Source of the DNA: Candidatus Omnitrophota bacterium | GTDB taxonomy: Bacteria > Omnitrophota > Gorgyraeia > Zapsychrales > Fredricksoniimonadaceae | Direction of reading: 5' to 3' | Assembly: GCA_023247575.1 (NCBI GenBank) | Contig: JAHFGE010000003.1 | Coordinates: forward strand, 24,940-66,597 | DNA: 41,658 bases | In this document: one piece after another, positions 11,532 to 34,916 of the stretch | Layout of the letters: each line of letters begins with the position of its first letter | Position numbering within the stretch: position 1 is the first letter of the stretch | Made by a program: the position numbers and the translations under genes | Notes under the pieces: model-generated | Seen by the model: the letters and a program-made list of their open reading frames with translations, nothing else | What the model was told of the DNA's origin: nothing | Databases searched by the model: none

Positions 11532-12861
11532 ATGGATCCAAACCCTTCGACTCTCTCCTCACTTCGCTCGTCGTTCGCTCAGGGTGGTTCGACTCTGCAA
11601 TCCAATGGTGAGCGAGCGGAGCGAGTCGAACCATAGGGGCTCCATAGTTTTCGCATTTTTACTTATTCTTGTTTTATCTGGTTTAAGTGCAGCTATTCTT
11701 TTAAAGAGTGTAAATGAAAGTCGGGTAGCCAATCGGATGGCTAACTCATCCGCAGCCCTGTGGGCCGCTGAAGCCGGCGTACAAAAAGTCCTATGGGAAT
11801 ATAATTACAATAACTGCCGGGATATGATTCAGCAATCTTCAGGCATTGCCTGTACTGATTGTACTTGTGGTAGTGTGACTAAGTCCCTGGCAGGGACGCT
11901 GACTGGCTACGCTGATTATGACGTAACATTCAATAGTGCCAATACCACACTTCAATCGGTTGGCTCAGTGCCAAGCCGCAGTGCTGCTAATCTGATTCAG
12001 CGCCGGGTTCAGGTCACTGTCGGCAGGCCGCCAACTTTTGGCAATGGAATTTTTGCACAGGGACAGGTCTGGTTGTCTAATAATGCCTTGATTGATTCCT
12101 ATAACTCGAGCAATGGTCCCTATGGGGGTTCCAATATTCTTCATAATGGTAATATTGGTACCAATGGAACAGGTTCAGGCATAATAAACCTTAGTAATAA
12201 TGTCACGGTGGATGGTAATCTCAGTACAGGTCCTGGTGGCACGGTCACAAAAGGGAATAATGTAACTGTCACAGGTACGACCACCAGCAATAACAGTGTT
12301 GCCCTTCCAGCGGTAGTTGTGCCATCGACTTTAACTGGTTTATCTAGTGGAGGAACATTAAGTATTGCTAATAATGGTTCTCAGACACTTAATGCCGGTA
12401 ATTATAAATATACAAATATCAGTATGGCTAATAATGCAACACTTAATATTAATGGCAATGTAAGCATTTATTTAACGGGTGCCACTGATTTGACCGCCAG
12501 CAATAATGTTGCTATTAATGTTACTAATGGATCAACCTTGACTATTTATCTTGATGGGACACTTAGTGTTAACAATAATGCTGCGATTAATAATGTTTCC
12601 CGACTTCCATCCAATCTTCAAATTTATAGTACTTATACGGGATCTAATGGTATCAGCATCGGTAATAACGCCACTACTTATGCGGCCGTCTATGCGCCTA
12701 CGACGGATGTTAATATGAGCAATAACGATAGTCTCTATGGGGCGGTAGTGGGTAAAACAGTAACATTAAATAATAATGCGGCCATTCATTATGATCAAGT
12801 TTTGGCAACGGTGGCTAACCCTTTCCAAAATGCCATTACCAGCAATTGGCAAGAATATTAA
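11524..12861 (+). CDS. PilX/GspK-like pseudopilin with Asn-rich beta-helix repeat domain
   Basis: ..HRG|SIVFAFLLILVLSGLSAAILL..RVANRMANSSAALWAAEAGV is a PilX_N-like N-terminus with no E at +5. About 10 units of xNN(A/V)x(I/V)N follow at roughly 20-25 aa spacing. The first 37 or so codons derive from a palindromic repeat. An alternative start is the ATG at 11605. Confidence 0.6.
   Translation: MNKWIQTLRLSPHFARRSLRVVRLCNPMVSERSESNHRGSIVFAFLLILVLSGLSAAILLKSVNESRVANRMANSSAALWAAEAGVQKVLWEYNYNNCRDMIQQSSGIACTDCTCGSVTKSLAGTLTGYADYDVTFNSANTTLQSVGSVPSRSAANLIQRRVQVTVGRPPTFGNGIFAQGQVWLSNNALIDSYNSSNGPYGGSNILHNGNIGTNGTGSGIINLSNNVTVDGNLSTGPGGTVTKGNNVTVTGTTTSNNSVALPAVVVPSTLTGLSSGGTLSIANNGSQTLNAGNYKYTNISMANNATLNINGNVSIYLTGATDLTASNNVAINVTNGSTLTIYLDGTLSVNNNAAINNVSRLPSNLQIYSTYTGSNGISIGNNATTYAAVYAPTTDVNMSNNDSLYGAVVGKTVTLNNNAAIHYDQVLATVANPFQNAITSNWQEY
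11543..11632. repeat. palindromic dispersed repeat (CCTTCGAC...GCTCAGGG...GAGCGAGTCGAACC), copy A, inside CDS 5' end
   Basis: CCCTTCGACTC...CGCTCAGGGTGGTTCGACTC...GTGAGCGAGCGGAGCGAGTCGAACC. The arms GGTTCGACTC and GAGTCGAACC are inverted. It shares motifs with the copies at 14791, 18090 and 34149. Borders are set by eye. Confidence 0.65.
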
Positions 12862-12875
12862 TTTAGGGAAATAGC

Positions 12876-12956
12876 ATGGACATTGTTTTTATAGGATTAA
12901 TCATTTTTCTTATGGTTTTATCGCTAGGCTTCATCACTTTATGCGGCAAGGTATAA
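12876..12956 (+). CDS. 26-aa hydrophobic peptide (MDIVFIGLIIFLMVLSLGFITLCGKV), not in ORF track
   Basis: ATG at 12876 preceded by AGGGAA. It forms a single TM-like helix and lies directly upstream of kdpF. No family assignment is possible. Confidence 0.3.
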   Translation: MDIVFIGLIIFLMVLSLGFITLCGKV

Positions 12957-12968
12957 GGGGGTGTGTTT

Positions 12969-13058
12969 ATGTTAGCTATTTACTGGGTTGGAGGTATTGT
13001 TTCGGTTGCCTTGTTTGCGTATCTTTTAATTGCATTTTTTAAACCGGAGATTTTTTAG
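12969..13058 (+). CDS. kdpF: K+-transporting ATPase subunit F
   Basis: The 29-aa peptide MLAIYWVGGIVSVALFAYLLIAFFKPEIF has the typical KdpF length, position (2 nt before kdpA) and C-terminal ..L(L/I)xxxxKPExF ending. The AAGGGGG RBS is at 12955-12961. It is too short for the ORF track. Confidence 0.7.
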   Translation: MLAIYWVGGIVSVALFAYLLIAFFKPEIF

Positions 13059-13060
13059 TT

Positions 13061-14896
13061 ATGAGCCATAACGATTTTATTCAAATGGGTATTTATCTTG
13101 TAGTGTTACTTTTGGCCGTCAAGCCATTAGGAATTTATATGGCGTATGTTTATGAAGGCAAACCAGCTGGTCTGAACATATGGTTGAGTGGTCTGGAACG
13201 GTGGATTTATCGCATCTGCGGAGTCAAACCGGAAAAGGGCATGACCTGGAAAGAATATGCCATTGCTCTTTTGGTGTTTAATATATTAGGTATTCTGATG
13301 GTTTATGCTATTCAGCGTCTTCAGGCCTTCTTACCTTTAAATCCCATGGCCATGGCAGCTGTATCACCGGACTCTTCCTTTAATACGGCAGTCAGTTTCG
13401 CTACCAACACCAACTGGCAGGGTTATAGCGGTGAAAGCACGACGAGTTACTTAACGCAGATGTTGGCCTTGGCCAAACAAAATTTTTCATCCGCAGCAAC
13501 GGGAATGGCTGTTCTGGCTGCTTTGATCAGAGGATTTATTCAAAAGCAGATGAATACCATTGGTAATTTCTGGGTCGATTTGGTAAGAACTGTTCTTTAT
13601 ATTCTACTGCCTCTGTCGATTATCTTTGCGCTGATTCTCGTATCTCAAGGGGTACCGCAAACCTTTAGTCCTAGCGCAAAAGCTACCTTGGTTCAAGCAA
13701 CGAAAGATTCAAATGGGAAACCAATGACCGAGCAGGATATAGCGCTAGGTCCCGTGGCTTCCCAGATAGCCATCAAGCAATTGGGAACCAATGGAGGTGG
13801 ATATTACAATGCTAATTCCGCCCATCCGTATGAAAATTCAACGCCTTTATCGAATTTTTTAGAAATGATCGCCATACTTTTGATTCCAGCAGCACTATGT
13901 TATACCTTTGGGGTTATGGTCAGAGATCGTCGCCAGGGTTGGGCTCTTCTGGCGGCCATGTTAGTTATTTTTATTCCTTGTCTTTGGGCTTCTATCACCA
14001 TTGAACAGAAAGGGAATCCTCTCTTCGATAAACTCGGTGTTGACCAAAGGGCAACAGCCTATCAGCCGGGTGGCAATATGGAAGGCAAGGAGGCCCGTTT
14101 TGGCGTTGTTTCTTCTGCTATTTGGTCTGTGGCCACCACCTCGGCTTCTAATGGTTCGGTTAATTCTATGCATGATTCATATATGCCTTTAGGTGGTTTG
14201 ATTCCGATGTGGCTTATTCAGCTTGGGGAAGTCATTTTTGGAGGTGTTGGTTCAGGCCTTTATGGAATGATCGCTTTTGTGATTGTGGCAGTTTTCGTGG
14301 CTGGTCTTATGATCGGCCGCACGCCGGAATATTTAGGGAAGAAGATTGAGGCCTTTGAAATGAAAATGGCGTCTTTGATGGCTTTGATCCCACATATTTT
14401 TGTCCTTATACCAACGGCTATCGCTGTACTTACAGTCGCAGGCAAAGCAGGGATTTCAAACCCAGGGCCACATGGTTTCAGTGAAATCCTTTATGGGTTT
14501 TCCTCGGCAGGCAATAATAATGGCAGTGCATTTGCGGGCTTAAATGCCAATACGGTTTTTTATAATACTGCTTTAGGGGTATCCATGTTTTTTGCACGTT
14601 ATTGGCTTATGATTCCGGCCTTAGCCATCGCGGGGTCTTTATCGGCAAAAAAAATTGTGCCAACAACTCAAGGAACCCTGCCCACTCATACGCCACTTTT
14701 TGTATTTTTTCTGGCGATGGTTATTTTAATTGTTGGAGCATTGGCCTTTTTCCCGGCTTTGGCGTTGGGGCCAATGGTGGAACATTTAATCCTTCGATCC
14801 TTCGATTTTACTCAGGATCAAACACTGAGCATAGTCGAATGTGTTCGATTACACTCAGGATTAACCCTGAGCGAAGTCGAAGGGTTAATGATATGA
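13061..14896 (+). CDS. kdpA: potassium-transporting ATPase subunit A, with repeat-derived C-terminal extension
   Basis: [16 protein letters not shown](Y)[20 protein letters not shown] and NNGSAFAG are KdpA selectivity-filter-like motifs. The usual KdpA end (..[14 protein letters not shown]) is followed by about 33 extra residues encoded by repeat copy B. Confidence 0.95.
14791..14884. repeat. palindromic dispersed repeat, copy B (two tandem hairpin units) forming the 3' end of kdpA
   Basis: CCTTCGATCC TTCGATTTTACTCAGGATCAAACACTGAGCATAGTCGAA TGTG TTCGATTACACTCAGGATTAACCCTGAGCGAAGTCGAAGGG. Each unit is TTCGA..CTCAG(G)..C(C)TGAG..TCGAA. Confidence 0.7.
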
Positions 14897-16983
14897 AAAA
14901 AATATCCCGCACAACCTCATCATTGTTCGATCCTTCTATCGTGGTGCCAGCCATTATTGAGTCATTGAAGAAATTAGACCCCAGGCATCAAATCAGGAAT
15001 CCTGTTATGTTTGTGGTCTGGGTGGGAAGTCTGTTGACGACGGGATTGTATGTGCAGGCACTTTGTGGTCATGGAGAGGCACCGGCTGGTTTTATTCTGG
15101 CGGTTGCCTTATGGCTGTGGTTTACCATTATTTTTGCTAACTTTGCAGAAAGCATGGCCGAAGGTCGGGGCAAGGCCCAGGCAGAGAGTTTACGCAAAGC
15201 CCGCAAAGATACTCCTGCCAAGAAACTATCCAACCTCAAATATGGTTCTGATTATACTACCGTTTCAGCCACAACTTTGCGTAAAGACGATATTGTCCTG
15301 GTGGAACGAGGTGATTTTATTCCTATGGATGGAGAAGTCATGGAAGGGGTGGCTTCCGTTGATGAAAGTGCCATTACCGGAGAAAGCGCGCCGGTCATCC
15401 GCGAAAGTGGTGGCGACCGCTGTGCTGTCACCGGCGGTACACGAGTACTTTCCGACTGGCTAATAGTCCGCATTACCTCAAACCCCGGAGAAACATTCCT
15501 TGATCATATGATTGCGATGGTGGAAGGTGCCAAGAGGCAAAAAACTCCTAATGAAATCGCTTTAAGTATTTTACTGATTGTTTTTACAATTATCTTTTTA
15601 TTGGTTACCGTCACTTTGTTACCTTTTTCGATTTTTAGTGTAGGTGTGGCCGGGCATGGTCAGGTCATTACCGTGACTGTATTGGTGGCCCTGCTTGTCT
15701 GCCTTATTCCGACTACGATCGGCGGATTACTGCCAGCCATTGGGATCGCTGGAATGGACCGCATGATACAGACTAATGTGATCGCTACCTCCGGCCGAGC
15801 GGTGGAGGCAGCGGGAGACGTGGATGTTCTATTGTTGGATAAAACCGGAACCATCACTTTGGGTAACCGGCAGGCGGTTGAATTTATACCTGTATCGGGA
15901 ATAAATATGGAAACATTTGTCGATGCCGTGCAGCTGGCCTCTTTGTCTGATGAAACCCCGGAAGGAAGAAGCATTGTTGTTTTGGCCAAAGCGAAACACG
16001 GGATCAGGGAGCGGCATATTCAGGACATCAATGCTAAATTTATCCCTTTTACAGCCCAGACCAAAATGAGCGGAGTGGACTTGGGAGATGGCCGGCAAAT
16101 TAGAAAAGGGGCCGTGGATGCCATTGATAGTTATGTTAGAAAATTGGGAGGTATATTTCCTGAATCTCTGAAATCTATCGTGGAGACCATATCCAAAAGT
16201 GGCGGTACTCCTTTAGCGGTCGCTGAAAATAATCGTATCCTGGGTATTGTTCAATTAAAAGATATTGTCAAAGGGGGGATTAAAGAACGGTTTGCTGAAT
16301 TACGTCGTATGGGTATTAAGACGGTGATGATTACTGGCGACAATCCTTTGACGGCAGCGGCCATTGCGGCAGAGTCAGGGATGGATGACTTTTTAGCCCA
16401 GGCCACCCCTGAGACTAAACTGAAATTTATTCGCGAGATGCAAACAGGTGGTCGGCTGGTGGCTATGACAGGAGATGGGACCAATGACGCGCCGGCCTTG
16501 GCCCAAGCAGATGTAGCGGTGGCGATGAACACGGGAACGCAGGCGGCTAAAGAGGCCGGCAATATGGTCGACCTTGATTCCAATCCAACCAAACTGATCG
16601 AAGTGGTCAAAATTGGTAAACAACTGCTCATTACCCGTGGTTCTTTGACGACATTTAGTATTGCCAATGATGTGTCCAAATATTTTGCTATTATCCCGGC
16701 GGCATTTGTAGGGACTTACCCGGTACTGGGAGCGCTTAATATCATGCATCTGGCAACCCCGCAAAGTGCCATTTTATCGGCAGTGATTTTTAATGCCCTG
16801 ATTATTATAGCTTTGATTCCATTGTCTTTGTTTGGCGTACCCTACAGGGCTGTAGCTGCCAGCCGCCTGTTAAGGGATAATTTGCTCATTTATGGGGTGG
16901 GTGGAATCATCGCGCCGTTTGCGGGGATTAAATTGATTGATATGATTTTGGTGGGGTTAAAATTAACATCGGGGGGATCATAA
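14893..16983 (+). CDS. kdpB: potassium-transporting ATPase subunit B (P-type ATPase)
   Basis: The true start is the ATG at 14893 ([31 protein letters not shown]), which overlaps the kdpA TGA (ATGA). It carries [15 protein letters not shown] and [21 protein letters not shown]. The ORF-track start 14602 is an out-of-frame overlap with kdpA. Confidence 0.95.
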
Positions 16984-16984
16984 A

Positions 16985-17560
16985 ATGTTATTTGCGCAAA
17001 TCAGACCCGCTATACTTTCTTTTATCCTGCTAACAATAGTCACCGGCATTCTTTATCCGCTTCTGGTGACCGGGATTGCTCAAACTGTTTTTCATAAACA
17101 GGCCGAAGGCAGTTTAATTGTCCAAGATGGAAAAGTACTTGGCTCATCACTGATCGGACAAAATTTTGATGATCCAAAATATTTTTGGGGACGTATCTCT
17201 GCCACCTCACCAGTATACAATGCTTCTTCCTCTACGGGTTCTAACCTGGGGCCATTAAATCCTGCTCTTATGGATGAAGTTAAAGGGCGAATCTCTGCTC
17301 TTAAAGCAGCAGATCCCAATAATACCAACCTCATACCTGTAGATCTGGTGACCTCTTCTGGTAGTGGATTGGATCCTCACATCAGTTTAGCCGCCGCTTA
17401 TTACCAAATCCCCCGCATTGCCCGTGTTAGAGGTTTACGACAGGAACAAATCAAGACAATTGTTGGCCAGCACACTCACGGCCGCCTTTTATGGGTATTG
17501 GGAGAACCAGTGATCAATGTGCTGGAGCTTAATCTGGCGTTGGATGGGCTCCATTCCTAG
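16985..17560 (+). CDS. kdpC: potassium-transporting ATPase subunit C
   Basis: It has an N-terminal TM segment, then ..GSLI..GKVLGSSLIGQNF..YFWGR.SA, VTSSGSGLDPHIS and A.YQ.PRIA. The protein is 191 aa and starts 1 nt after the kdpB stop. Confidence 0.93.
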   Translation: MLFAQIRPAILSFILLTIVTGILYPLLVTGIAQTVFHKQAEGSLIVQDGKVLGSSLIGQNFDDPKYFWGRISATSPVYNASSSTGSNLGPLNPALMDEVKGRISALKAADPNNTNLIPVDLVTSSGSGLDPHISLAAAYYQIPRIARVRGLRQEQIKTIVGQHTHGRLLWVLGEPVINVLELNLALDGLHS

Positions 17561-17614
17561 CCGCAGCCAAGACTTTAACACCCGACAAACTACTACGACA
17601 ACTACGACAAATGA

Positions 17615-17632
17615 GGGGGGGGGGGGGGGGGG
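17615..17632. repeat. homopolymeric G18 tract
   Basis: Counted directly as atga + 18 G + ttcaaaca. It is preceded by the short direct repeats CGACAA x3 (17583-17610). Confidence 0.95.
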
Positions 17633-17661
17633 TTCAAACAACTATTCTCGGTAGGGATAAC

Positions 17662-18333
17662 ATGCGTCCCCAAGGCGTTCCTATACTGAAGATTAAATTT
17701 ACAGGAAAGGTTCTATCTACAAAATCGAAGAAAACCGAAGATGATATTATTTCGAAAATAGAAAGATTTATGGAAGTTGATTTAATTGAGAGTATGAAAT
17801 CCGTTACAGACTACTACCAGGGAAACCGCGAAGAAGCAAAGGTCGAAATGACATGGTATCTTTTTGATCTGTTATTTGAGATATTTAAAGTGGATGGAAT
17901 CGGAGGATTAAATTCAGCTTGGTTTACGATCAAGCATTCTGGCTCTATACGATCAATCGAAGATACAGCGATGAATGCTTCGCAAGAACCATTTGGTACT
18001 GTAATTGCTCAAGGACATACAGAGACACGTCGCCAAGGCGGTATCGACTTGACCGCCAACAAAACGCCTTTGGAAATTAAATATGGTAGCCCTTCGACTC
18101 GCCCTGACGGGCTCGCTCAGGGTGAACCTTTCAGGTTCAACCCCGCCATGTCCGCCACCCCATCAAATCGGGGTGGCGAGACCTCGCCAGGCCTTGAGCC
18201 TGGCGGGCTCCAGCAGTTGCAGAATGCCCCTGGTTTTGTGCCGGTGATTATTAATATTCAGGAGATGACAAATTTAAGTGAATTTCTTGGCCTGCCGAAA
18301 GAAAATCGTACGGTACTCACAACAAGCAGCTAG
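17662..18333 (+). CDS. hypothetical protein with conserved C-terminal GGIDL...LQQLQNAPGFVPVIINIQ module, interrupted by two repeat insertions
   Basis: The open frame runs 17611-18333. I prefer the ATG at 17662 (MRPQGVPILKIKF..) because the 17611 start would translate the poly-G tract as Gly5. The C-terminal motif is one I recall from uncultured-bacterium hypothetical proteins; this is unverified. Confidence 0.5.
   Translation: MRPQGVPILKIKFTGKVLSTKSKKTEDDIISKIERFMEVDLIESMKSVTDYYQGNREEAKVEMTWYLFDLLFEIFKVDGIGGLNSAWFTIKHSGSIRSIEDTAMNASQEPFGTVIAQGHTETRRQGGIDLTANKTPLEIKYGSPSTRPDGLAQGEPFRFNPAMSATPSNRGGETSPGLEPGGLQQLQNAPGFVPVIINIQEMTNLSEFLGLPKENRTVLTTSS
18090..18128. repeat. palindromic dispersed repeat, copy D, in frame inside CDS
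   Basis: CCCTTCGACTCGCCCTGACGGGCTCGCTCAGGGTGAACC, translated as PSTRPDGLAQGEP. It forms the hairpin CGCCCTGA/TCAGGGTG. Confidence 0.65.
18151..18207. repeat. double GC-rich hairpin element in frame inside CDS
   Basis: CGCCACCCC-ATCAAATC-GGGGTGGCG has a 9-bp stem. It is followed by CGCCAGGC-CTTGA-GCCTGGCG with an 8-bp stem. The element is translated as SATPSNRGGETSPGLEPGG. Confidence 0.65.
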
Positions 18334-18400
18334 GAAAGTCTTGACGGATAAAATTAATGATGTTACATATAATGTAGTTTGAATAAGATAATAAGGGAGC

Positions 18401-18703
18401 GTGATGGCCAATTTTATTGATTTTGAATGGGATCCTGTTAAAGCCAGAGCAAATTACAAGAAGCATGGAGTATCATTTGAACGAGCAGCGACCGTATTTA
18501 ATGATCCAAGAGCAATTACTATTTATGATGATGAACATAGCACTGTGGAAGAAAGGTGGATTACCTTAGGATTGGATTACAGTGGTGGATTAACTGTGGT
18601 TTCTCATACGTATGCACGGGAAAGTGATCAGACGGTTAGAATAAGGATTATCTCGGCGAGAAAAGCAACGAAATTTGAAATTAAACAGTACAGGGAGATA
18701 TAA
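18401..18703 (+). CDS. brnT: BrnT family toxin (DUF497)
   Basis: FEWDPVKARANYKKHGVSFERAATVF.DP....YDDEHS..EERW..LG......L.VV.HT is the BrnT/DUF497 signature. The start is either GTG at 18401 or ATG at 18404, after the AAGGGAG RBS. Confidence 0.85.
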   Translation: MMANFIDFEWDPVKARANYKKHGVSFERAATVFNDPRAITIYDDEHSTVEERWITLGLDYSGGLTVVSHTYARESDQTVRIRIISARKATKFEIKQYREI

Positions 18704-18706
18704 GAT

Positions 18707-18901
18707 ATGAAAAAAGAATACGACTTTTCAAATGGGACAAGAGGCAAATTTTATAAGAAAGGCATCCAATTAAGGTTACCTATTTATTTAGATTTAGATT
18801 TACAACATAAGCTTGAATCGATGGCCAGTAAACGTCATAAGGCTTTGAATGAAATGGTATCCAACCTTTTGCGTAAAGAAATTCAGTTGGTAAGCAATTA
18901 G
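18707..18901 (+). CDS. brnA: BrnA-like antitoxin
   Basis: This 64-aa ORF starts 3 nt after brnT. It has the KKEYDFSNGTRGKFY motif typical of the small partners of BrnT, and a C-terminal RHH-like helix. Confidence 0.65.
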   Translation: MKKEYDFSNGTRGKFYKKGIQLRLPIYLDLDLQHKLESMASKRHKALNEMVSNLLRKEIQLVSN

Positions 18902-18935
18902 TAGGAAAATTAATCCTAATCTCTGTCAGAATTAA

Positions 18936-21276: not shown

Positions 21277-21277
21277 C

Positions 21278-21335
21278 GTAGGGGCGATGCTTGTCATCGC
21301 CCGAAATATTGGGCGAACATGAGGTTCGTCCCTAC
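21278..21335. repeat. compound palindromic element GTAGGG-[GGGCGATG..CATCGCCC]-[GGGCGAAC..GTTCGTCC]-CTAC
   Basis: Two internal hairpins are bracketed by GTAGGG...CCCTAC. It starts 1 nt after the pgpA stop and is possibly a terminator. Confidence 0.7.
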
Positions 21336-21360
21336 TATGATTTAACAAGGAGGTAGTTAG

Positions 21361-25715: not shown

Positions 25716-25729
25716 TTAAGGAGGGGTAT

Positions 25730-25909
25730 ATGGCTGAAGAAAAGAAGGAAGAAAGTTGTTCAACGAAGGGCGGCTGTGGTTGCTGTAGCGGAGTTAAACA
25801 GCTTATTATTGGGCTGCTTTTAGGGGCGTTGATTTTCGCCTTTGGCTATTTTGTCGCCCAGGGTGGATGTCCTTTCGGTTCTAAAATATGCCCATTGATG
25901 CAGCGTTAA
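25730..25909 (+). CDS. 59-aa Cys-rich small membrane protein (not in ORF track)
   Basis: A strong AAGGAGG RBS at 25717-25723 lies 6 nt before the ATG at 25730. The sequence is MAEEKKEESCSTKGGCGCCSGVKQLIIGLLLGALIFAFGYFVAQGGCPFGSKICPLMQR, with 7 Cys flanking one TM helix. Confidence 0.5.
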   Translation: MAEEKKEESCSTKGGCGCCSGVKQLIIGLLLGALIFAFGYFVAQGGCPFGSKICPLMQR

Positions 25910-27108: not shown

Positions 27109-27161
27109 CATTAATTTTGCGGTATGCTATACTTCTTTTAATATTTTAATAGGAGCAGGTT

Positions 27162-28697
27162 ATGCGTGCAGGAGTTATTGATATAGGATCATCAACGACT
27201 AAATTGCTTATCGGCGAGCGCCAGGGAGAAGATGTTAGAATTATAGAGTCCCTTAAAAACGCCGTGCCTTTAGGTCGCCATGCCTTTTTAAAACCTCGTA
27301 TCCCACAGACCATCATTAATCAAACCGCCTCTGTCTTACAAAAGTATAAAGAAACGCTTAAAGAATATGATGTTTCTGATGTCACTGTCATCGCCACCAC
27401 CGCTGTACGCGAGGCCCGTAATCAGGACATTTTTTTAGATACAGTTTTACGCAAGACTGGCTTTAAGATCGACGTACTTAATGTTGGTGATGTGGTGTAT
27501 TACATTGATTATTTCCTCTCTCATAAGCTCAAGAAAACCTATCCAGTGGATGAAAAGAATTTATTGATTGCTGAATTGGGCGCAGGAAGTCTTGACATGT
27601 CGGTGATGGAAAAAGGTCTAACCTTGGTCAATATTGGTTTTCCTGTCGGTACCCTTCGTTTATCTCAGTTTATGGAACATTTAGATGGCTCTATGCAGGA
27701 AATCCATGAGGCTACCGAAGAGTATATTGAGAATGAAATCCTGTTCTTGAAAAAGAATAATCCATCCTTGAAAATCGACGATATCATCTTGATCGATGAG
27801 AATTATTCCGTTTTTATTCAGAATATCCTGCCTAACAAACGTCGCGATTCGGATTTTTTTAAATTTAAATCGTCGGAGGCTCAGGAGTTTCTTTTACGTC
27901 TGCGCCAGATGAACTCGGAAGAAATTGCTAGGACCTATAATGTACCGCCTGATGTTGCCACGACCATCGTAGGTTTTGCCATCATTCTCAATACGCTTCT
28001 GAAAATTAATAAGAGCGAATATGTCTATATCCTGGAAGCTTCTTTATCCGAGGCTATCTTAGCCAACCAGCTTTTCCGTCTGGAAACTTCTGAGAAGACC
28101 GATAAGATAAGTCAGTTGGTTTCTGTGGCGCATTTTCTGTGTCGCAAATATGGCATGGATTTAGATCATCTCAAACACGTGGCCACCATAACACAACAAT
28201 TATTCGATGCTTTTAAGGACATTTTAGGCTTGGATCAGCAGGATCGTCTGTATTTAATTTTGGCGTCCTATTTGCACGATTTGGGTATGTTTATCAATAA
28301 TCGCTCTCACCACAAACACAGCGAATACATTATCAGCTCTTCCAATCTGTTTCGCCTGACAGAAGATGAGATTAATATCATTGCTTGCATTGCCCGCTAT
28401 CATCGACGGTCAGCACCTTTAAAGACCCACTTGGTTTATAACTCCTTATCTTCCCAGCAGCAGATTTTAGTCCAGAAACTCAGTGCGCTTTTGCGTATTG
28501 CCAATGCTTTGGATCGTTCGCATAAGCAAAAGGCCAAGGGTTTAGAAGTGAAGTTTAATGCTAGCGGTGACGCCACTATCATTGTTTACACCAACGAGAA
28601 TTTTTTATTGGAAAAAGAAAATTTTTTGGAGAAAAAGGAACTTTTTGAAGAAATTACTGGCAATCAATTGACGTTGGCGGTCAAAAGCCAGCAGTAG
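27162..28697 (+). CDS. ppx: exopolyphosphatase / Ppx-GppA family phosphatase with HD domain
   Basis: It has an actin-like ATPase fold start (MRAGVIDIGSSTTKLLIGE, AELGAGSLD) and a C-terminal HD region (YLHDLGMFIN.RSHHKHSEYII, ARYHRRS). The protein is 511 aa. Confidence 0.88.
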   Translation: MRAGVIDIGSSTTKLLIGERQGEDVRIIESLKNAVPLGRHAFLKPRIPQTIINQTASVLQKYKETLKEYDVSDVTVIATTAVREARNQDIFLDTVLRKTGFKIDVLNVGDVVYYIDYFLSHKLKKTYPVDEKNLLIAELGAGSLDMSVMEKGLTLVNIGFPVGTLRLSQFMEHLDGSMQEIHEATEEYIENEILFLKKNNPSLKIDDIILIDENYSVFIQNILPNKRRDSDFFKFKSSEAQEFLLRLRQMNSEEIARTYNVPPDVATTIVGFAIILNTLLKINKSEYVYILEASLSEAILANQLFRLETSEKTDKISQLVSVAHFLCRKYGMDLDHLKHVATITQQLFDAFKDILGLDQQDRLYLILASYLHDLGMFINNRSHHKHSEYIISSSNLFRLTEDEINIIACIARYHRRSAPLKTHLVYNSLSSQQQILVQKLSALLRIANALDRSHKQKAKGLEVKFNASGDATIIVYTNENFLLEKENFLEKKELFEEITGNQLTLAVKSQQ

Positions 28698-28722
28698 AGA
28701 CGCAGCAATGCTACGTCTGTAC
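28694..28722. repeat. GTAGAGACGCAGC-AAT-GCTACGTCTGTAC palindrome, second copy of the 3977 element
   Basis: It differs from copy 1 at 2 positions in the right arm. It overlaps the ppx stop codon (TAG, 28695-28697). Confidence 0.8.
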
Positions 28723-28735
28723 AACGAAAAGAATT

Positions 28736-30781
28736 ATGGAACTAAAAGATAAATTTATTCATAGAGACTTAAGCTGGCTGGAGTTTAACCGCCGAGTTTT
28801 GGAAGAAGCGGCGGATGAACGTAATCCCCTGTTGGAGCGCTTGAAATTTTTAAGTATTTTTAGCAGTAATCTGGACGAATTTTACATGGTGCGTTTGGCA
28901 GGGGCCAAGAAGCTCTTGGCCTCTGGTTTTAATCGTAAAGATCAATTCGGGTTTACTCCTCAGGAGATATTTGCCGAAGTTAAACTAAAAGCCGATAGCT
29001 TAGTCAAAGACCTTTACGATATTTATACCGGTTCACTCAAGGTAACCCTGGAGACTAACAGGATTTACCTAAAGACCATTGATCAGTTAAATGAGACCCA
29101 GAAAAAGTTTGTTAAACGTTTTTTTGATACCACGCTTTATCCCATCATTACGCCCATGGCGGTCGATCAAGGGCATCCTTTTCCTGACCTTCCTTCGAAA
29201 ACCATTGCTTTGGCTGTCTCCATTGTTCGCTTGGAGAAAAACCATTTAGCCTTGGTCCCTGTACCGAAATCTGTACCACGTCTACTTAAACTGCCTTCCG
29301 AAGGAGAAGACTTTGATTTCATCTTGATCGACCATTTGATTAAGGACAATCTGAAAGATTTTTTTAAAGGATATAAAATTCAAGCAGCCTCGGCCTTTCG
29401 CTTACTGCGTGATAGTGACATTGCTTTCGATGAGGAATTCGCGCCCAATTTACTTAAGGCTATGGAAAAGGAGTTGAAAAAACGTACAAGCGCTCAAACG
29501 GTTTACGTGCAGATGGAGCAGGCCCCGACCGTACTACCATCTGGGGAGGTGGCTAATGCCGAATTGGTTGATGTCCTCTGCAATGGACTTGGCTTCCCAA
29601 AAGAAGAAGTGGCTTTTGTCCCCCCTGATTTGGATTTGACGTTTTTTTATGAGATGGCTAATAGCATTGACCGGCCCGGAGGACGTTTTGATAGTTTCTC
29701 GCCAGTCAAAACTCCTTATGAAAATATTTTCGACAAAATCAAAGAAGAGGATTTTATCATTCACTTGCCTTTTCAATCCTTCTTTCCAACGGAGGATTTG
29801 GTGCAGACCTCTGCCAAAGATCCGGATGTACTGGCCATTAAAATGACGCTTTATCGTACTAATGAAGATTCTAATATTATTAAAGCGCTTATGGAAGCGG
29901 CTAAGCGACGCAAACAAGTCACGGCTGTGGTTGAGATCAAGGCTCGGTTTGAAGAAGAAAAGAACATTCAATGGGCCCGGGATCTGGAGCAGGCTGGTTG
30001 TCATGTCATTTACGGGATTGCTGGTTTAAAAATTCATTCCAAGATGACCTTAATTGTCCGTCGGGAAGAAGGACGCATCCGCCGGTATGTACACCTTTCT
30101 ACTGGTAATTACAATGAAAAGACAGCGCGCCTGTATACGGATATTGGATATTTTACTGCCAATGATGATTTCGCCCGCGATGTGGCTGACGTTTTTAACG
30201 TCATTACCGGTTATTCGCAACCCAGTCCCTGGAAGAGGGTTATTTCTTCGCCGTATGATTTACGCAAATACTTTTTAGATCTCATCGATCGCGAAATGGA
30301 GCATCAAAAAACTCATAAAAATGGCCTTATTACCGCTAAAATGAATTCTTTAGAAGACGTAGCTATGATTGAGAAGCTTTATGCAGCTTCCCAGGCGGGG
30401 GTTAAAATCCGGATGGTGGTACGAGGGATTTGCTGTTTGATTCCGGGGGTAGAGGGTTTAAGTGAGAATATTGAAGTGAGCAGTGTGGTTGGTCAATTTT
30501 TGGAGCATTCACGAATTTTTGTTTTTCACAATAACGGCACCCCAAGAATTTTTTTATCCTCGGCAGACTGGATGACGCGCAATTTCGACCGTCGCATTGA
30601 GTTGTTATTTGAAATTACTAAACCTGAAATTAAAACACACTTGCAATTCATATTAGATAATTATTTAAAGGATAGTTTTAAGGTGCGTATTTTGAAAAGT
30701 AATAAAATTTATACACGTTTATCAAAGGATCAGGCATCTTTTAGCGTTCAGGAATATTTTATTAAGCATTATACGAAATAA
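28736..30781 (+). CDS. ppk: polyphosphate kinase 1
   Basis: It carries FIHRDLSWLEFNRRVLEEAADERNPLLERLKFLSIFSSNLDEFYMVR plus two PLD-like domains (KIHSKMTLIVR, ..FLEHSRIF). The protein is 681 aa. Confidence 0.95.
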   Translation: MELKDKFIHRDLSWLEFNRRVLEEAADERNPLLERLKFLSIFSSNLDEFYMVRLAGAKKLLASGFNRKDQFGFTPQEIFAEVKLKADSLVKDLYDIYTGSLKVTLETNRIYLKTIDQLNETQKKFVKRFFDTTLYPIITPMAVDQGHPFPDLPSKTIALAVSIVRLEKNHLALVPVPKSVPRLLKLPSEGEDFDFILIDHLIKDNLKDFFKGYKIQAASAFRLLRDSDIAFDEEFAPNLLKAMEKELKKRTSAQTVYVQMEQAPTVLPSGEVANAELVDVLCNGLGFPKEEVAFVPPDLDLTFFYEMANSIDRPGGRFDSFSPVKTPYENIFDKIKEEDFIIHLPFQSFFPTEDLVQTSAKDPDVLAIKMTLYRTNEDSNIIKALMEAAKRRKQVTAVVEIKARFEEEKNIQWARDLEQAGCHVIYGIAGLKIHSKMTLIVRREEGRIRRYVHLSTGNYNEKTARLYTDIGYFTANDDFARDVADVFNVITGYSQPSPWKRVISSPYDLRKYFLDLIDREMEHQKTHKNGLITAKMNSLEDVAMIEKLYAASQAGVKIRMVVRGICCLIPGVEGLSENIEVSSVVGQFLEHSRIFVFHNNGTPRIFLSSADWMTRNFDRRIELLFEITKPEIKTHLQFILDNYLKDSFKVRILKSNKIYTRLSKDQASFSVQEYFIKHYTK

Positions 30782-30804
30782 GGAATTGTGACACATCTAC
30801 AACC

Positions 30805-31797
30805 ATGCATTACTACGTCGGCATTGACATTGGCGGTACCAAGATGGCGGCGGTTATGATGATGGATAGTGGCCGCATTATTTCTCGCCTTAAAGTATCC
30901 ACTCCAGATCAAGCAAACCCTAAAAATATTTTGGCTTGTTTAGTAACATTGATTGAGGAATTAAAATCATCTTCGTCGGTAAAATCCTCTGAAATTAAAG
31001 GTATTGGGGTGGGTGTCCCTGGTATTGTGGATACAGACAAGGGACACATTTTAGCCGCTCCCAATATACGTTTGACCGGTTTTCCTTTAAGTGAACATTT
31101 AAAAAAGAAATATAGAACCAAGATTATCCTAGCTAATGATGTCAATGCTGGTCTTTTAGGGGAAGCCTGGTTAGGGGCGGCTCGTGGTTTTAATCATGTG
31201 GTCGGTATTTTTCCCGGCACAGGAGTAGGGGGGGCTGCATTAGTCAATGGTCATTTGATTTTAGGTGCTCAAGGCGCTGCTACAGAGTTAGGTCATATGA
31301 TTATGCACATCAATGGGCCTTTATGCCATTGCGGCAACCGCGGCTGCTTGGAAGCCTTGACCAGCCGCTGGGCCATAGAGCGTGATATACGGGCTCTCAT
31401 TAAAAAGGGGCGTAAAAGCATCATCAAGGACCTTAATAAGGGCAGTTTAACCACTATTAAAAGCCGGGTGCTGAAGGAAGCTTTGCAAAAAAATGATAGA
31501 GTGGCCAAAACTGTTTTAAAGCAAGTGGCAGTGAGTTTAGGCCAGGCCTCGGTTTCCATTAATCATATTTTTAATCCTCAAGCCATTGTTTTGGGTGGAG
31601 GAGTGATCAAAGCCTGCGGGTTTTTTATGCTTCCTATTATAAAAAAGACGCTTCAAGCGGACCCTTTCTTTAAACGCTTCAATACCTGCCAGATCTTCCA
31701 ATCCAGCCTGGGGGATGATGCTGTGCCTTTAGGCGCGGTCCGATTGGTACAAACTACCAGCCGAAGGGATTTTACGATTCACCCTCTTGTCTTTTAG
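30805..31797 (+). CDS. glk: ROK family glucokinase
   Basis: It carries YVGIDIGGTKMAAV, NDVNAGLLGE, ELGHM and the ROK zinc motif CHCGNRGCLEA. Confidence 0.85.
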   Translation: MHYYVGIDIGGTKMAAVMMMDSGRIISRLKVSTPDQANPKNILACLVTLIEELKSSSSVKSSEIKGIGVGVPGIVDTDKGHILAAPNIRLTGFPLSEHLKKKYRTKIILANDVNAGLLGEAWLGAARGFNHVVGIFPGTGVGGAALVNGHLILGAQGAATELGHMIMHINGPLCHCGNRGCLEALTSRWAIERDIRALIKKGRKSIIKDLNKGSLTTIKSRVLKEALQKNDRVAKTVLKQVAVSLGQASVSINHIFNPQAIVLGGGVIKACGFFMLPIIKKTLQADPFFKRFNTCQIFQSSLGDDAVPLGAVRLVQTTSRRDFTIHPLVF

Positions 31798-31820
31798 GTT
31801 ATGGTCTACGGTCTTAAACC

Positions 31821-31870
31821 CCTGCCTGCTGGCAAGGCAGGTATGGTCTCCATATAAAAGAGACCATACC
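31821..31870. repeat. two stacked hairpins (CCTGCC-9-GGCAGG; GGTATGGTCTC-9-GAGACCATACC)
   Basis: I checked the inverted repeats base by base. The second stem is a perfect 11 bp (31840-31850 / 31860-31870). Confidence 0.75.
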
Positions 31871-31876
31871 CGCCTG

Positions 31877-31930
31877 GCCTGTCCGCCTCGGCGAGCCATA
31901 GGACAGGCATGGGGATTTTTTATTATTTTT
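31877..31930 (+). terminator. candidate intrinsic terminator downstream of glk
   Basis: The stem is GCCTGTCC (31877-84) / GGACAGGC (31901-08), with an inner CGCC-TC-GGCG. It is followed by the T-rich run ATGGGGATTTTTTATTATTTTT. Confidence 0.5.
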
Positions 31931-31958
31931 GACAACCCCGCAGGGAATAAACATTGAC

Positions 31959-31983
31959 AAGTATGCATTTATAATGCATACTT
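31959..31983. promoter_or_regulatory. perfect 25-bp palindrome AAGTATGCATT-TAT-AATGCATACTT abutting the vapB ATG; candidate VapB operator
   Basis: The 11-bp arms are exact reverse complements. It contains TATAAT (31970-75). The ATGCATA motif recurs at 31984-90. Confidence 0.55.
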
Positions 31984-32178
31984 ATGCATATGAGAACAAC
32001 ATTAATTCTTAACGAAGATATTTATAAAAAAGCAGCGGAGATGACTGGCGTCAAGGAGAAAACTGCCTTAATTCATATGGGACTGCAGACCTTGATTGCA
32101 CATGAGGCTGCCCGTCGTCTGGCTAAATTAGGTGGAAGCGAAAAACAGCTTAAAGCCATCCGTCGCCGTAGGTTTTAA
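31984..32178 (+). CDS. vapB: type II antitoxin, VapB family (DUF2191-like)
   Basis: (MH)MRTTLILNEDIYKKAAEMTGVKEKTALIHMGLQTLIA.EAARRLAKLGGSE is the typical VapB_antitoxin sequence. An alternative start is the ATG at 31990. Confidence 0.8.
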   Translation: MHMRTTLILNEDIYKKAAEMTGVKEKTALIHMGLQTLIAHEAARRLAKLGGSEKQLKAIRRRRF

Positions 32179-32179
32179 T

Positions 32180-32545
32180 ATGATCCTCGTAGACACCTCC
32201 GTGTGGATTTCCCACCTGCGACGGCATAATCAGCAACTGGATAATCTGCTGGGCTTTGAATTCGTTTTTTGCCATCCCTTGATTATTGGAGAGATTTCTT
32301 GTGGCCAGTTGAAAGAGCGGTCTTTAGTGTTGACTTTACTTGAGGAGTTGCCCCAGGCTTCTATTGTGACTCATCAGGAGGCTATGAATTTTATTGAACA
32401 TCATCATCTTATGGGACGCGGCCTGAGCTTTATTGACATACATCTTTTAGCGTCTTGCCAAATAACCAATCTTTCCCTTTGGACGGAAGATAAAATCCTG
32501 CAAAAAGTTGCCCACCAGCTTGGCTTGGCCTTTATTATAGTTTAA
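32180..32545 (+). CDS. vapC: type II toxin VapC, PIN-domain ribonuclease
   Basis: MILVDTSVWISHLR (Asp5), GEIS, FIDIHLLA and WTEDK supply the PIN acidic residues. The ATG at 32180 lies 1 nt after the vapB stop. The ORF-track start 32132 overlaps vapB. Confidence 0.85.
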   Translation: MILVDTSVWISHLRRHNQQLDNLLGFEFVFCHPLIIGEISCGQLKERSLVLTLLEELPQASIVTHQEAMNFIEHHHLMGRGLSFIDIHLLASCQITNLSLWTEDKILQKVAHQLGLAFIIV

Positions 32546-32580
32546 AAACCAAATTTTTTTGTACACCTCCTAAAAATAAA

Positions 32581-32608
32581 TTGTAATATTAGCAGGATTT
32601 GCTATAAT
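32581..32608 (+). promoter_or_regulatory. candidate sigma70 promoter with extended -10 (TTGTAA-16 nt-TGcTATAAT)
   Basis: The -35 TTGTAA is at 32581-86, TG at 32600-01 and the -10 TATAAT at 32603-08. It lies about 47 nt upstream of the ATG at 32655, the first gene of the glycogen cluster. Confidence 0.45.
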
Positions 32609-32654
32609 CATTTCCTCTTTTATCACTACCTATTGAATGACAAGAGGTTACAAG

Positions 32655-33812
32655 ATGCGCATTGCGTTTTTCTCATGGGAGGCGGTCCATTCCGTTTTTG
32701 TCGGCGGTATTGGTCTTCACGTCACTGAGCTCGCCTGTGCCCTGGAACGCAAAGGCTACGAAGTGCATGTTTTTACGCGCATGGCCCGTCCTGATCATCT
32801 CACCTATGAATGTATCGATGGGGTTCACTATCACCGATGTCCATTTGCCAGCCATCCTGATTTCATAGAAGAAGTGGCCAATATGTGTCGTTCTTTTGTG
32901 GATACTTTTTTGGCTACGGAAGACTATATTGGTGGCTTTGATGTCATTCACGGCCATGACTGGCTGACAGCCTTTTGCCTGGAATGGATTAATAAAGCCC
33001 GACGCCATAAAACCGTTTTTACGATTCATTCCACGGAATATGGTCGCTGTGGAAATAATTTTTTTAATGGCCATTCTCAACATATCCGTCATTTGGAATG
33101 GTTAGGTTCTTACTGTAGCGACCAGGTTATTACGGTATCTAATGCCTTAAAGCATGAGGCTATGGGGATGTACAGTATCCCCGAATCTAAAGTCGATGTT
33201 GTCTATAACGGTGTTAGCTATTCGGATTATAACGGTTGGATTGACCCCGGAGATGTCAAACGTCAGTACGGGATTGGGCTCATGGATCCCATGGTCCTTA
33301 TTGTCGGCCGTATCGTCTACCAAAAGGGGCCGGACTTGCTGGTTAGTGCGATCCCTTCTGTTTTAAGCTTTTATCCCAATGCCAAGTTTGTCTTTGTGGG
33401 TGATGGAGAAATGCGGTGTGAAGTTGAACAACAGGCTCGTAACATGAGGGTGTCTCATGCAACGCGTTTTTTGGGCAAGCAAAGTTCCTGGCGTTTGAAA
33501 GATTTGTTCAAGTCCACGGATTGCGTCTGTGTCCCTAGTCGTAATGAACCTTTTGGCATTGTTATCCTGGAAGCCTGGAGCGCTGGAAAACCAGTTGTGG
33601 CCACCACCAATGGTGGCCCCAATGAGATTATCTGGCACGATGTCAATGGGTTAAAAATTCAAGATAATCCTGAATCCATAGCGTGGGGAATTGGAACACT
33701 CTTTAAAGATTTTGATCACGCTCGCTGGATGGGGCACAATGGCCGAATGACTGTGGAGACGTCTTTTTCGTGGGATGTTATCGCCAATGAAACGCTTCAT
33801 GTTTATAGTTGA
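32655..33812 (+). CDS. glycogen synthase-like glycosyltransferase (GT4/GT5, GT-B fold)
   Basis: It carries MRIAFFSWEAVHSVFVGGIGLHVTELACALERKGYEVHVFT and a C-terminal EPFGIVILEAWSAGKPVVATTNGGPNEII (E-x7-E). The AGAGG RBS lies 7 nt before the ATG at 32655; the ORF track starts at 32637. Confidence 0.8.
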   Translation: MRIAFFSWEAVHSVFVGGIGLHVTELACALERKGYEVHVFTRMARPDHLTYECIDGVHYHRCPFASHPDFIEEVANMCRSFVDTFLATEDYIGGFDVIHGHDWLTAFCLEWINKARRHKTVFTIHSTEYGRCGNNFFNGHSQHIRHLEWLGSYCSDQVITVSNALKHEAMGMYSIPESKVDVVYNGVSYSDYNGWIDPGDVKRQYGIGLMDPMVLIVGRIVYQKGPDLLVSAIPSVLSFYPNAKFVFVGDGEMRCEVEQQARNMRVSHATRFLGKQSSWRLKDLFKSTDCVCVPSRNEPFGIVILEAWSAGKPVVATTNGGPNEIIWHDVNGLKIQDNPESIAWGIGTLFKDFDHARWMGHNGRMTVETSFSWDVIANETLHVYS

Positions 33813-33824
33813 GGTGTATTAATT

Positions 33825-34916
33825 ATGCCACAACACATTTTCGATTCTTCAACCGAACTTCCCGCCTTACAGCCACGTACTCATTGCATCCTTATGCCAC
33901 GAGATCCTAACTGTATTTACGCTTATTGGGATTACACCCAGGAAGATATTGACAATACCCGTAACCAGCTTAAGTTCGAAGGGGCGGATTCTCAACTGGT
34001 CCTTCGCATCTATGATATTACCTTTATTGAGTTTAGCGGTTCAAATACGAATCGTAGCTGGGATCTGGATGTAGGTTTTTCAACTAAAAATTGGTACATT
34101 CATGTATGGCAAGATAATGCGGTTTACTGTGCTGAGCTTGGGCTTCGTCCTTCGACAAACTCAGGACTTGCCCCGAGCGAAGTCGAGGGGCTTCGCTGTG
34201 GCGTAAACCGTTTTATACCATTAGCGCGTTCTAACACTATCCGTACACCACCCAAATCCACCTCGCCAAGGAATGATTTGATTTGGCAGGATATTAAAGC
34301 CCGCAAGGAATCCCAACCCTACATTAGGGAAGATATTAAGGATCTTTCCAAACGTTCCCATAGTTTCAAAAAATTTGGTCAAGCCAAACAGTCCCTCAGA
34401 GAAGGAATCTACTATTTAACCCCCCAGGACATTCGTGCTTATTACAGGGAGATTTTTTCCAGAGTATCAAAAAAGAGTAAGAGTAACATCCGTTCACTTG
34501 AAGATATTCTCAAAGGAAAACTAAGAGGTAAATCCTGGCAAAAGGTCGAGCCTTTAATGACAAACGCTGATTTCATCAGGCGTCATCTTGGCGCCTCGAT
34601 GGAACTTATAGAGAAATGGGGGGCGAGTGAAAATTTATTGAACGCTCAAGAAAAAAATTTTTTCTTTGAAATTTGGACGGAATTGCTTGTCTATGGACGG
34701 ACAGAACCTGATGCAGCGGTTTGGCTCAACCAAAAGGGAATCAAGTTAAATCCAGATGGGACATTTTCATTACGCTATGTTCTTACCAACGGCGAAATTC
34801 CTCTTAAATTCATAGCTCAATCTTCAGACGGTGCCCAACAGCGTCATATCTCTACACGCGTTAAACGCGAAAAGACAGTAAGTTTTCCAAAGATGTTAAA
34901 GGAACCCCATGGCTAA
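33825..34916 (+). CDS. DUF4912 domain protein (conserved neighbour of GH57 branching enzymes)
   Basis: The N-terminus LMPRDPNCIYAYWDYTQEDI and the C-terminus FFFEIWTELLVYGRTEPDAAVWLN..I.LNPDGTF fit my recollection of DUF4912. It overlaps the downstream GH57 gene by 8 nt and contains repeat copy C. Confidence 0.7.
   Translation: MPQHIFDSSTELPALQPRTHCILMPRDPNCIYAYWDYTQEDIDNTRNQLKFEGADSQLVLRIYDITFIEFSGSNTNRSWDLDVGFSTKNWYIHVWQDNAVYCAELGLRPSTNSGLAPSEVEGLRCGVNRFIPLARSNTIRTPPKSTSPRNDLIWQDIKARKESQPYIREDIKDLSKRSHSFKKFGQAKQSLREGIYYLTPQDIRAYYREIFSRVSKKSKSNIRSLEDILKGKLRGKSWQKVEPLMTNADFIRRHLGASMELIEKWGASENLLNAQEKNFFFEIWTELLVYGRTEPDAAVWLNQKGIKLNPDGTFSLRYVLTNGEIPLKFIAQSSDGAQQRHISTRVKREKTVSFPKMLKEPHG
34149..34190. 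repeat. palindromic dispersed repeat, copy C, in frame inside DUF4912 CDS
   Basis: CCTTCGACAAACTCAGGACTTGCCCCGAGCGAAGTCGAGGGG is 42 nt, or 14 codons (PSTNSGLAPSEVEG). Confidence 0.7.

Follow-up and report, generated by a model that had tools for sequence, protein, structure and literature searches.

Insertion sequences (IS) of the IS200/IS605 family, such as IS608 and ISDra2, have hairpins at their ends and insert without a fixed-length duplication beside a short target that pairs with a guide inside the element, whose 3′ end has a short site similar to that target. Mycobacterial interspersed repetitive units (MIRUs), known from mycobacteria only, are tandem direct repeats, and Elhai et al. 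are said to have described, in 2008, small dispersed repeats of cyanobacteria that are tens of nucleotides long, look mobile and are associated with hairpins. Rickettsia palindromic elements (RPEs), as summarised in a later source, are about 100-150 bp long, belong to Rickettsia only and fall into ten sequence families (Ogata et al. 2000 via PMC10969869). Here we describe a smaller palindromic repeat found in a 41,658-nt stretch of a Candidatus Omnitrophota genome (contig JAHFGE010000003.1, positions 24,940 to 66,597), which we call the window. Four loci of the window form one dispersed palindromic family, and three of them (sites A, B and D) are, judged by alignment, lineage-specific in-frame insertions that have no counterpart in orthologues.

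The four loci lie in a PilX-like gene (site A), at the 3′ end of kdpA (site B), in an open reading frame (ORF) with a conserved GGIDL module (site C) and in a DUF4912 gene (site D; Table 1). The pattern CCTTCGAY-N2-30-CTCAGG has six matches in the window and with them reaches each of the four loci, the expectation from dinucleotide shuffles being 0.01; the full-unit pattern TTCGA-N3-6-CTCAGG-N4-12-CYGAGC-NNN-GTCGA has three (two in kdpA, one in DUF4912) against 0.00 expected. Because the units differ by indels, fixed-spacing patterns matched one copy each, and gapped patterns were used instead. A covariance model (R1), built from 90 copies that all come from other genomes, as was the consensus given below, scored the DUF4912 unit at 53.6 bits (E 3e-14) and the kdpA units at 43.3 and 42.8 bits. 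On the PilX copy it recognised the right part only (11588-11630, 11.7 bits, E 0.16), and it found no further scoring site in the window; a mismatch-tolerant scan of the window likewise gave no additional site. There are accordingly three full units and two partial ones in 41.6 kb. All loci fold better than their shuffles (z -3.7 at site A, -7.5 at B, -2.2 at C and -3.1 at D), with fold energies of -38.8 kcal/mol at site A and -43.1 kcal/mol at site B. An earlier note, made from the letters alone, had read shared motifs at these four places and suggested folding them as RNA; the motifs are there, far above chance, the similarity of the loci is borne out by the covariance model at D and B, and the folding z-scores span -2.2 to -7.5.

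Table 1. Palindromic copies in the window and in-frame copies in genes of other genomes
Feature	Position in window	Strand	Host or setting	Basis
Site A: composite palindromic insert, 102 nt (34 codons)	11533-11634	+	PilX-like gene (11524-12861)	Exact insert versus orthologues and relatives
Site B: 99-nt insert (33 codons)	14791-14889	+	kdpA (13061-14896)	KdpA profile, E. coli KdpA, homologue alignments
Site C: decayed half-copy	18091-18141	+	GGIDL-module ORF (17611-18333)	Sequence; pattern match shared with site A
Site D: 48-nt insert (16 codons)	34149-34196	+	DUF4912 gene (33825-34916)	Alignment of 31 DUF4912 proteins; empty sites
In-frame copy, L002			T2SSE ATPase domain	
In-frame copy, L041			RsmE methyltransferase	Profile match split into two stretches
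In-frame copy, L096			TilS interdomain linker	
In-frame copy, L114			PilM-like ORF, element upstream of matched Pfam region	

A unit is about 48-51 nt long and has two arms of about 17 nt each, X (ccTTCGA(C/T)-n3-5-(G)CTCAgg) and X′ (c(c/t)GAGC-n3-GTCGA(a/g)gg), which are reverse complements of each other and enclose a variable centre, T′, of 4-12 nt; the 90-copy consensus reads CCTTCGAC...GTCGAAGG. A short flank, T, follows X′ and usually also precedes X. Centre and 5′ flank can form a stem of at least 6 bp in 54 of 129 copies, compared with 59 of 1990 controls, and centre and 3′ flank one of at least 7 bp in 56 of the 129, compared with 15 of 1990. For the left stem, 72% of cells are paired, as opposed to 57% in shuffles, and the covariation score is 0.40 (0.17 in shuffles), a value that none of 500 shuffles reaches, slid controls being far lower. 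The 5′ and 3′ flanks are direct repeats, each of which matches the reverse-complemented centre; the layout is therefore T-X-T′-X′-T, with a centre complementary to both flanks, and this layout is new here. A strand of it has two possible folds: a pair of neighbouring hairpins that expose X and X′ in their loops, or a single long hairpin of X with X′.

T is constant within subfamilies, being TCAA with centre TTGAT in four copies from Patescibacteria (candidate phyla radiation) and CGA with centre GGGTCGYCCC in a subfamily of Acidobacteriota, and so is usually carried along by the element. At site D and in the RsmE copy (L041) one copy of T is native coding sequence. The flank repeats measure 8 nt at these two loci and 6-8 nt, imperfectly matched, at site B, within an overall range for T of 3-9 nt. 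Units nested after the TTCGAC/T of another unit occur in the window and in Acidobacteriota. The validated intragenic inserts measure 48, 48+51, 51 (L041) and 102 nt, and the element core is open in four to five of the six frames.

In the DUF4912 gene, the residues PSTNSGLAPSEVEGLR stand between LGLR and CGVNRF in the window protein only, among 31 aligned DUF4912 proteins, and are missing from the 30 orthologues. Relatives have the empty site (for example CTT GGA CTT CGT/TCC, the slash marking the junction), and the Pfam DUF4912 match breaks at residue 110. The insert consists of X (CCTTCGACAAACTCAGG), the centre ACTTGCC, X′ (CCGAGCGAAGTCGAGG) and then GGCTTCGC, these terminal 8 nt duplicating the native GGCTTCGT at 34141-34148; T is GGCTTCG(Y). 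In an AlphaFold model, residues 109-124 are a loop predicted with low confidence; it lies between strands 100-109 and 131-135 of a beta domain that is itself confident. Separately, two other variations were seen among DUF4912 orthologues: P0024 has its native tail ...FPKMLKE..G swapped for ...FTRHPERSEGS, the kind of peptide that a palindromic repeat typically gives when it sits at a gene's 3′ end, and P0008 and P0033 have a common 12-residue insert (IDKNFTTNEAIG/LDKNPTTNEAIG, alignment columns 389-402).

For the PilX-like gene, the empty site is present in the DNA of two relatives (ATGAATAAA/AGGGGCTCC in L149 and ATGAATAAT/AGGGGCTCT in L151), and the window has exactly 102 nt between its two halves. 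The insert follows codon 3 (MNK) and precedes RGSIVFAF; orthologues begin MNK(R/K)GSIVFAFLL, and 27 of them are without the segment. From its start codon at 11524 the gene shares 8 nt with the pseudopilin gene upstream, as it does in L149, and this start is therefore the native one. Within the insert, an expanded left arm (CCTTCGACTC...TTCGCTCAGGG, 11544-11584) is joined to a hairpin (GGTTCGACTC...GAGTCGAACC, 11586-11632). The insert occupies the leader, ahead of the RG motif; should a prepilin peptidase process the protein, it would presumably leave the mature product as it is without the insert.

Site B lies ahead of the last two codons of kdpA (MI, then stop) and of the ATGA overlap with kdpB (start 14893). 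The KdpA Pfam profile stops at residue 576 of the 611 of the window protein, and E. coli KdpA has one residue beyond ...GPVAEYL, the equivalent of ...GPMVEHL in the window. With 150 KdpA homologues, alignment stops at query residue 575-581, tails are 2-8 residues long and the insert is absent. Excised in silico, the site becomes GAA CAT TTA ATG ATA TGA, which keeps the MI tail and the ATGA overlap onto kdpB. The insert is preceded by TTAAT (14786-14790), and its own last five bases are a second TTAAT (14885-14889). Two tandem hairpins had been described here at the outset; there are indeed two units, whose order may be tandem (14799-14841 and 14842-14883) or, equally possible, nested, with a 51-nt unit (14799-14849) placed after TTCGAT of a 48-nt outer unit (14791-14798 plus 14850-14889). 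For the outer unit T is (G/T)TTAAT and the centre ATTAAC; for the inner one T is TGTTCGAT, adjoining CCTTCGAT of the outer arm, and the centre is ATCAAACA.

Site C belongs to the family by its pattern match to site A, and consists of a left arm only. The arm reads CCTTCGAC-TC-[GCCCTGACGGGC]-TC-GCTCAGG, with a mini-hairpin in its middle (18091-18128), and is followed by a hairpin, TGAACC-TTTCA-GGTTCA, with the right arm missing; the conceptual translation is PSTRPDGLAQGEP. The host ORF is real, having a strongly conserved C-terminal module, and the linker that contains the element varies in length among homologues. We take site C to be a decayed copy that is probably an insertion.

The same ORF has a second in-frame insert of 57 nt (18151-18207, 19 codons, SATPSNRGGETSPGLEPGG), which interrupts its most conserved motif (DPAM/LQQLQNAPGF) and consists of two GC-rich hairpins, CGCCACCCC/GGGGTGGCG and CGCCAGGC/GCCTGGCG; the homologue P0122 carries a related insert, SAKIKDFGEISPGLGPGG, at the same point. 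The module itself, GGIDLT..K..L...(I/F)xFxxDPAMLQQLQNAPGFVPVIINIQPMxDLxxFLG (about 18035-18300), is the nearly invariant C terminus of small proteins that are unrelated to one another in their N-terminal parts, Rossmann-fold and pentapeptide-repeat proteins among them. It is covered by no Pfam family and may be a shuffled C-terminal signal or domain.

Inserts A, B and D are all multiples of three and free of stop codons, in agreement with the earlier observation that host frames stay open. The borders first set by eye (internal copies of about 39, 42 and 90 nt) were refined by comparison with orthologues at three sites, giving lengths of 102 nt at A, 99 nt at B and 48 nt at D. Relative to orthologues, the inserts add to an N terminus (A), a C terminus (B) and a surface loop (D), in line with the remodelling of termini and loops proposed in the earlier note.

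We scanned other genomes, taking one genome per species, and found the same core at no fewer than 119 loci. Among the 80 matches listed there are at least 13 phyla, and nearly all of the genomes are metagenome-assembled genomes (MAGs). Acidobacteriota account for 35 of these 80, Thiotrichales for 9, Omnitrophota for 8, Patescibacteria and Planctomycetota for 6 each, Chloroflexota for 5, and Cyanobacteria (L010, L030, L075) and Bacteroidota for 3 each, with single matches in Ignavibacteria, Nitrospirae, Elusimicrobia, Verrucomicrobia and Saganbacteria. Genomes of low GC content have most copies in short open spans, that is, between genes. Several other copies stand in frame within verified genes or domains (Table 1). 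A count of ORF spans in GC-rich Acidobacteriota was given no weight as to intragenic location, since long open frames that are spurious are to be expected there. The earlier note's suggestion that peptide scars of this kind are widespread in uncultured lineages is borne out by the presence of the core in 13 phyla or more and, in frame, in genes for T2SSE, RsmE and TilS. Closer to the host, about 300 kb of related Omnitrophota DNA (27 DUF4912 and three PilX loci) holds one degenerate, intergenic copy only (L149/L150). Set against the five units in 41.6 kb of window, this points to recent lineage-specific spread.

Other genomes carry further forms of the repeat. The copy in L149/L150 lies in an unusually long intergenic region (8049-8585, 537 nt) of a pilus cluster of related Omnitrophota; on the minus strand, at about 8110-8200, it is an expanded element with GC-rich mini-hairpins in the middle of both arms (CCTTCGACTC-[GCCCCGCCCTTCAGGGCGGGGC]-TTGCTCAGG...), a form like that of site C. 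A Planctomycetales MAG (L021) has an array of several adjacent or nested units at about 3750-4345 of a 7998-nt open span without a Pfam match, all of them in frame (conceptual translation LRPSTGSALRFHSGLSPERSRMDSGLGLGLSEVEGLRSGFD...). Finally, a Leucothrix mucor MAG (L004, L019, L026, L052, L059, L067, L071, L074) has the element within a longer, nearly identical repeat, atttccgcaccc...gggtgcaatta, which is present on at least 8 contigs and has perfectly palindromic arms.

We consider it probable that the loci are copies of a palindromic insertion element that is very small and non-autonomous. By an estimate from the ORF list, coding sequence makes up about 93% of the window, so insertions that hit genes are to be expected, and it is their survival that needs explaining. 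In so compact a genome most insertions would fall in genes, and the survivors would be those of a length divisible by three, without stops and in a tolerant position, such as the stretch ahead of the RG motif in a pilin-type leader, the far C-terminal tail of KdpA, which precedes the coupled start of kdpB, or a beta-hairpin loop. Purifying selection would remove other copies, with almost no intergenic room left. That the element is tolerated, or selected, only when it preserves the frame, as the earlier note had put it, is inferred from the copies that survive.

How the copies move is the weakest step of this explanation: they would be mobilised in trans by an enzyme encoded outside the window. 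Our favoured guess is a structure-specific single-strand transposase of the HUH/Y1 (IS200/IS605-like) type, with the centre guiding cleavage at the flanking and the terminal T; it would fit best because of the pairing between centre and flanks, the constancy of T in subfamilies and the lack of a fixed duplication. If the insertion element is granted, such a transposase takes the largest share of our confidence, well short of half, template switching at microhomologies a clearly smaller one, and a miniature inverted-repeat transposable element (MITE) of the DDE type a smaller one again; these shares hold within that explanation and are not comparable with the likelihoods given below for rivals to it. 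Template switching would reproduce the junctions equally well and leave the conservation of arms across phyla unexplained, and a DDE-type MITE fits least well.

Several observations weigh against a mobile element of this kind, or against its guided transposition. Movement is deduced from comparison of sequences, and no transposase of any kind, Y1/RAYT and TnpA included, is found among the window ORFs. The insertion at site A has no flanking duplication, with both stem halves lying within the insert, the T2SSE copy (L002) has no left-flank pairing, and neither of the two fits a guided single-strand transposase. At site D the centre agrees with the ends of T only, and junction features differ among sites A and D, L041 and L002. 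Selfish repeats do not usually keep a 17-nt arm nearly identical from phylum to phylum, and for them to do so would need a conserved trans factor or horizontal spread. The conservation of the bases specified in the scan is partly by construction, the pattern having been derived from window copies. Viral contigs gave 2 matches only, so carriage by phages is not supported.

A bolder reading, possible but doubtful in our judgement, takes the repeat as a self-contained mobile module of about 48 nt spread over at least 13 phyla, in which pairing by the centre programs the choice of target or the synthesis of the insert, and which is mobilised by a widespread enzyme so far not linked to it, or by none. 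If true, no smaller mobile DNA with a guide would be known, and compact genomes would have in it a general source of peptides inserted in frame.

Among the rivals to a mobile insertion element, spread without any transposase survives best, although we think it unlikely. Here replication would switch templates, or gene conversion would act, at microhomologies (T), with the hairpin stalling the polymerase. A double switch at T would give native T followed by X-T′-X′-T exactly, would tolerate an imperfect T (CCTTCGAT versus TGTTCGAT, inner kdpA unit) as well as the homology-free junctions of site A, and would account for nesting at TTCGAC/T within other copies. It explains neither the conservation of the arms across phyla nor the pairing of centre and flanks.

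The repeat could also be an ordinary MITE, with X and X′ standing for the terminal inverted repeats that bound a DDE insertion sequence and T for its target-site duplication, which we rate lower still. The arms are indeed inverted repeats of about 17 nt, and direct flank repeats of 8 nt (site D, L041) or of 6-8 nt, imperfect (site B), resemble duplicated targets, but the insertion at site A is exact and without duplication, and a T of 3-9 nt that stays constant within subfamilies would be carried by the element rather than copied from the target. A DDE mechanism moreover leaves the complementarity of centre and flanks unexplained, and no parent IS was seen in the window or the examined loci, no annotated IS library having been searched.

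Next comes the established model for such repeats, that of repetitive extragenic palindromic sequences (REPs) and their doublets (REPINs; PMC3116915). The hairpins would then be REPs that owe their spread to a REP-associated tyrosine transposase (RAYT) with its gene elsewhere in the genome, and copies inside genes would be accidental. Short imperfect palindromes whose doublets can form one long hairpin are common to both, and RAYT-type activity in the host is quite plausible, as the window also contains a distinct palindrome family of the GTAG type. Against this, the 90-copy consensus has no conserved GTAG, the two hairpins are not reverse complements of each other, as those of a REPIN must be, and there is no Y1 gene in the window. 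Every window copy is within an ORF rather than extragenic, others lie in T2SSE, RsmE and TilS genes, and at least 13 phyla share near-identical arms, whereas REP sequences are tied to one species or to its RAYT. We hold a classical REP/REPIN origin to be quite unlikely, and the label REP-like, originally attached to the repeat, applies only loosely: the family is palindromic and multi-copy, and it is not GTAG-bearing, extragenic or species-specific.

It is improbable that the hairpins are selected cis-acting RNA or DNA structures kept in place, for instance as an mRNA stabiliser, a modulator of kdpA-kdpB coupling or a protein-binding site. The strong covariation of the stems, the shared centre strand through which the two hairpins could act as a switch, and the copy at the kdpA-kdpB junction would suit such a role, but the copies occur in unrelated genes and at intergenic sites, on either strand and in many phyla, orthologues function without the hairpins, and the complementarity to pre-existing coding flank came together with the insert. 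No Rfam family matches: with Rfam 15 covariance models, no match was found at gathering thresholds at the elements in the window or at 10 loci, and relaxed thresholds gave chance-level matches only. Native coding sequence made similar by chance or convergence can be dismissed almost entirely, being refuted for sites A, B and D by the absence of the segment from 27, 150 and 30 orthologues, respectively, and by a chance expectation of 0.00-0.01, even if the linker at site C is as long as that of the homologue P0123.

Some further ideas were considered and rejected. A tRNA-like origin, suggested by the resemblance of TTCGA and GCTCAG to T-loop and D-arm motifs, does not fit the order of motifs or the stems. 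Hairpin-cap/P-nucleotide and tyrosine-recombinase core-site models predict X...X or X′...X, where X...X′ is observed. Replicative adjacent inversion of a single X gives T-X-T′-X′-T on paper and needs two exactly matched events and solitary T-X-T precursors; clearly solitary arms are few, most apparent singles being doublets whose partner missed the strict pattern.

The GTAG-starting palindromes of the window, which in this start resemble classical REPs, form a family of their own, GTAGAGACGCAGCAATGCTGCGTCTCTAC, unrelated to the element described here, with two intergenic copies of 30 nt and 90-93% identity (3977-4007 and 28694-28723). The first folds at -26.3 kcal/mol (z -10), and the second provides the TAG stop of a Ppx/GppA-like ORF (27162-28697).

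The window has a GC content of 43% and carries every substantial gene on the + strand, with a type IV pilus minor-pilin cluster, kdpABC, polyphosphate genes and glycogen genes. Orthologues of the DUF4912 and PilX-like proteins with a named source come almost all from Candidatus Omnitrophota/Omnitrophica. Downstream of kdpABC (region 16985-18703) stand the GGIDL-module ORF and then a BrnT-family toxin gene (18401-18703), not kdpDE, and a PIN-domain gene lies at 32132-32545.

These repeats matter for annotation, as the modules yield recurrent predicted peptides such as PSTSSGQ, FDKLR, LRQAQ, PE(R/L)VEG and LSLSK and create spurious or extended ORFs in MAGs of many phyla; a model of the family would clean gene calls and the assignment of starts and stops. 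For protein evolution, they suggest that tiny selfish repeats persist in the leaders, tails and loops of real proteins in a compact genome, extending to free-living and uncultured lineages a trait once thought peculiar to Rickettsia. A flank-complementary centre and arms common to many phyla point to an unrecognised mechanism of mobilisation.

Searching the literature by taxon, encoded peptides and arm sequence, we found no description of the element, which is not proof of novelty. Like MIRUs, it includes a small repeat at an operon gene junction that keeps a stop/start overlap, here between kdpA and kdpB, whereas MIRUs are tandem direct repeats rather than palindromes. Size and hairpins liken it to the cyanobacterial small dispersed repeats as these are reportedly described, and it is itself present in Cyanobacteria. 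With IS200/IS605 elements and their miniature palindrome-associated derivatives it would share end hairpins, the lack of a fixed duplication, a guide-like pairing with a short target and a similar short site at its own 3′ end; it differs in that a single centre would serve both ends and pair over up to 8-9 nt instead of 4-5, in the absence of TnpA from the window, and in site A, which does not fit.

REPs and REPINs (PMC3116915) are likewise short imperfect palindromes with long-hairpin doublets, non-autonomous and multi-copy, and the present family is set apart from them by lacking GTAG, by not being confined to extragenic sites or to one species, and by its T-X-T′-X′-T doublet geometry. By analogy, the closest known counterpart is the RPEs. 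As far as the account in PMC10969869 describes them, these too are dispersed palindromes in frame within unrelated functional genes, and also intergenic, that add extra peptides where the fold tolerates them, such peptides being predicted from sequence in our case. Compared with that description, the present unit is much shorter, at 48-51 nt, has an Omnitrophota host and arms common to at least 13 phyla, and possesses a centre complementary to its own flanks.

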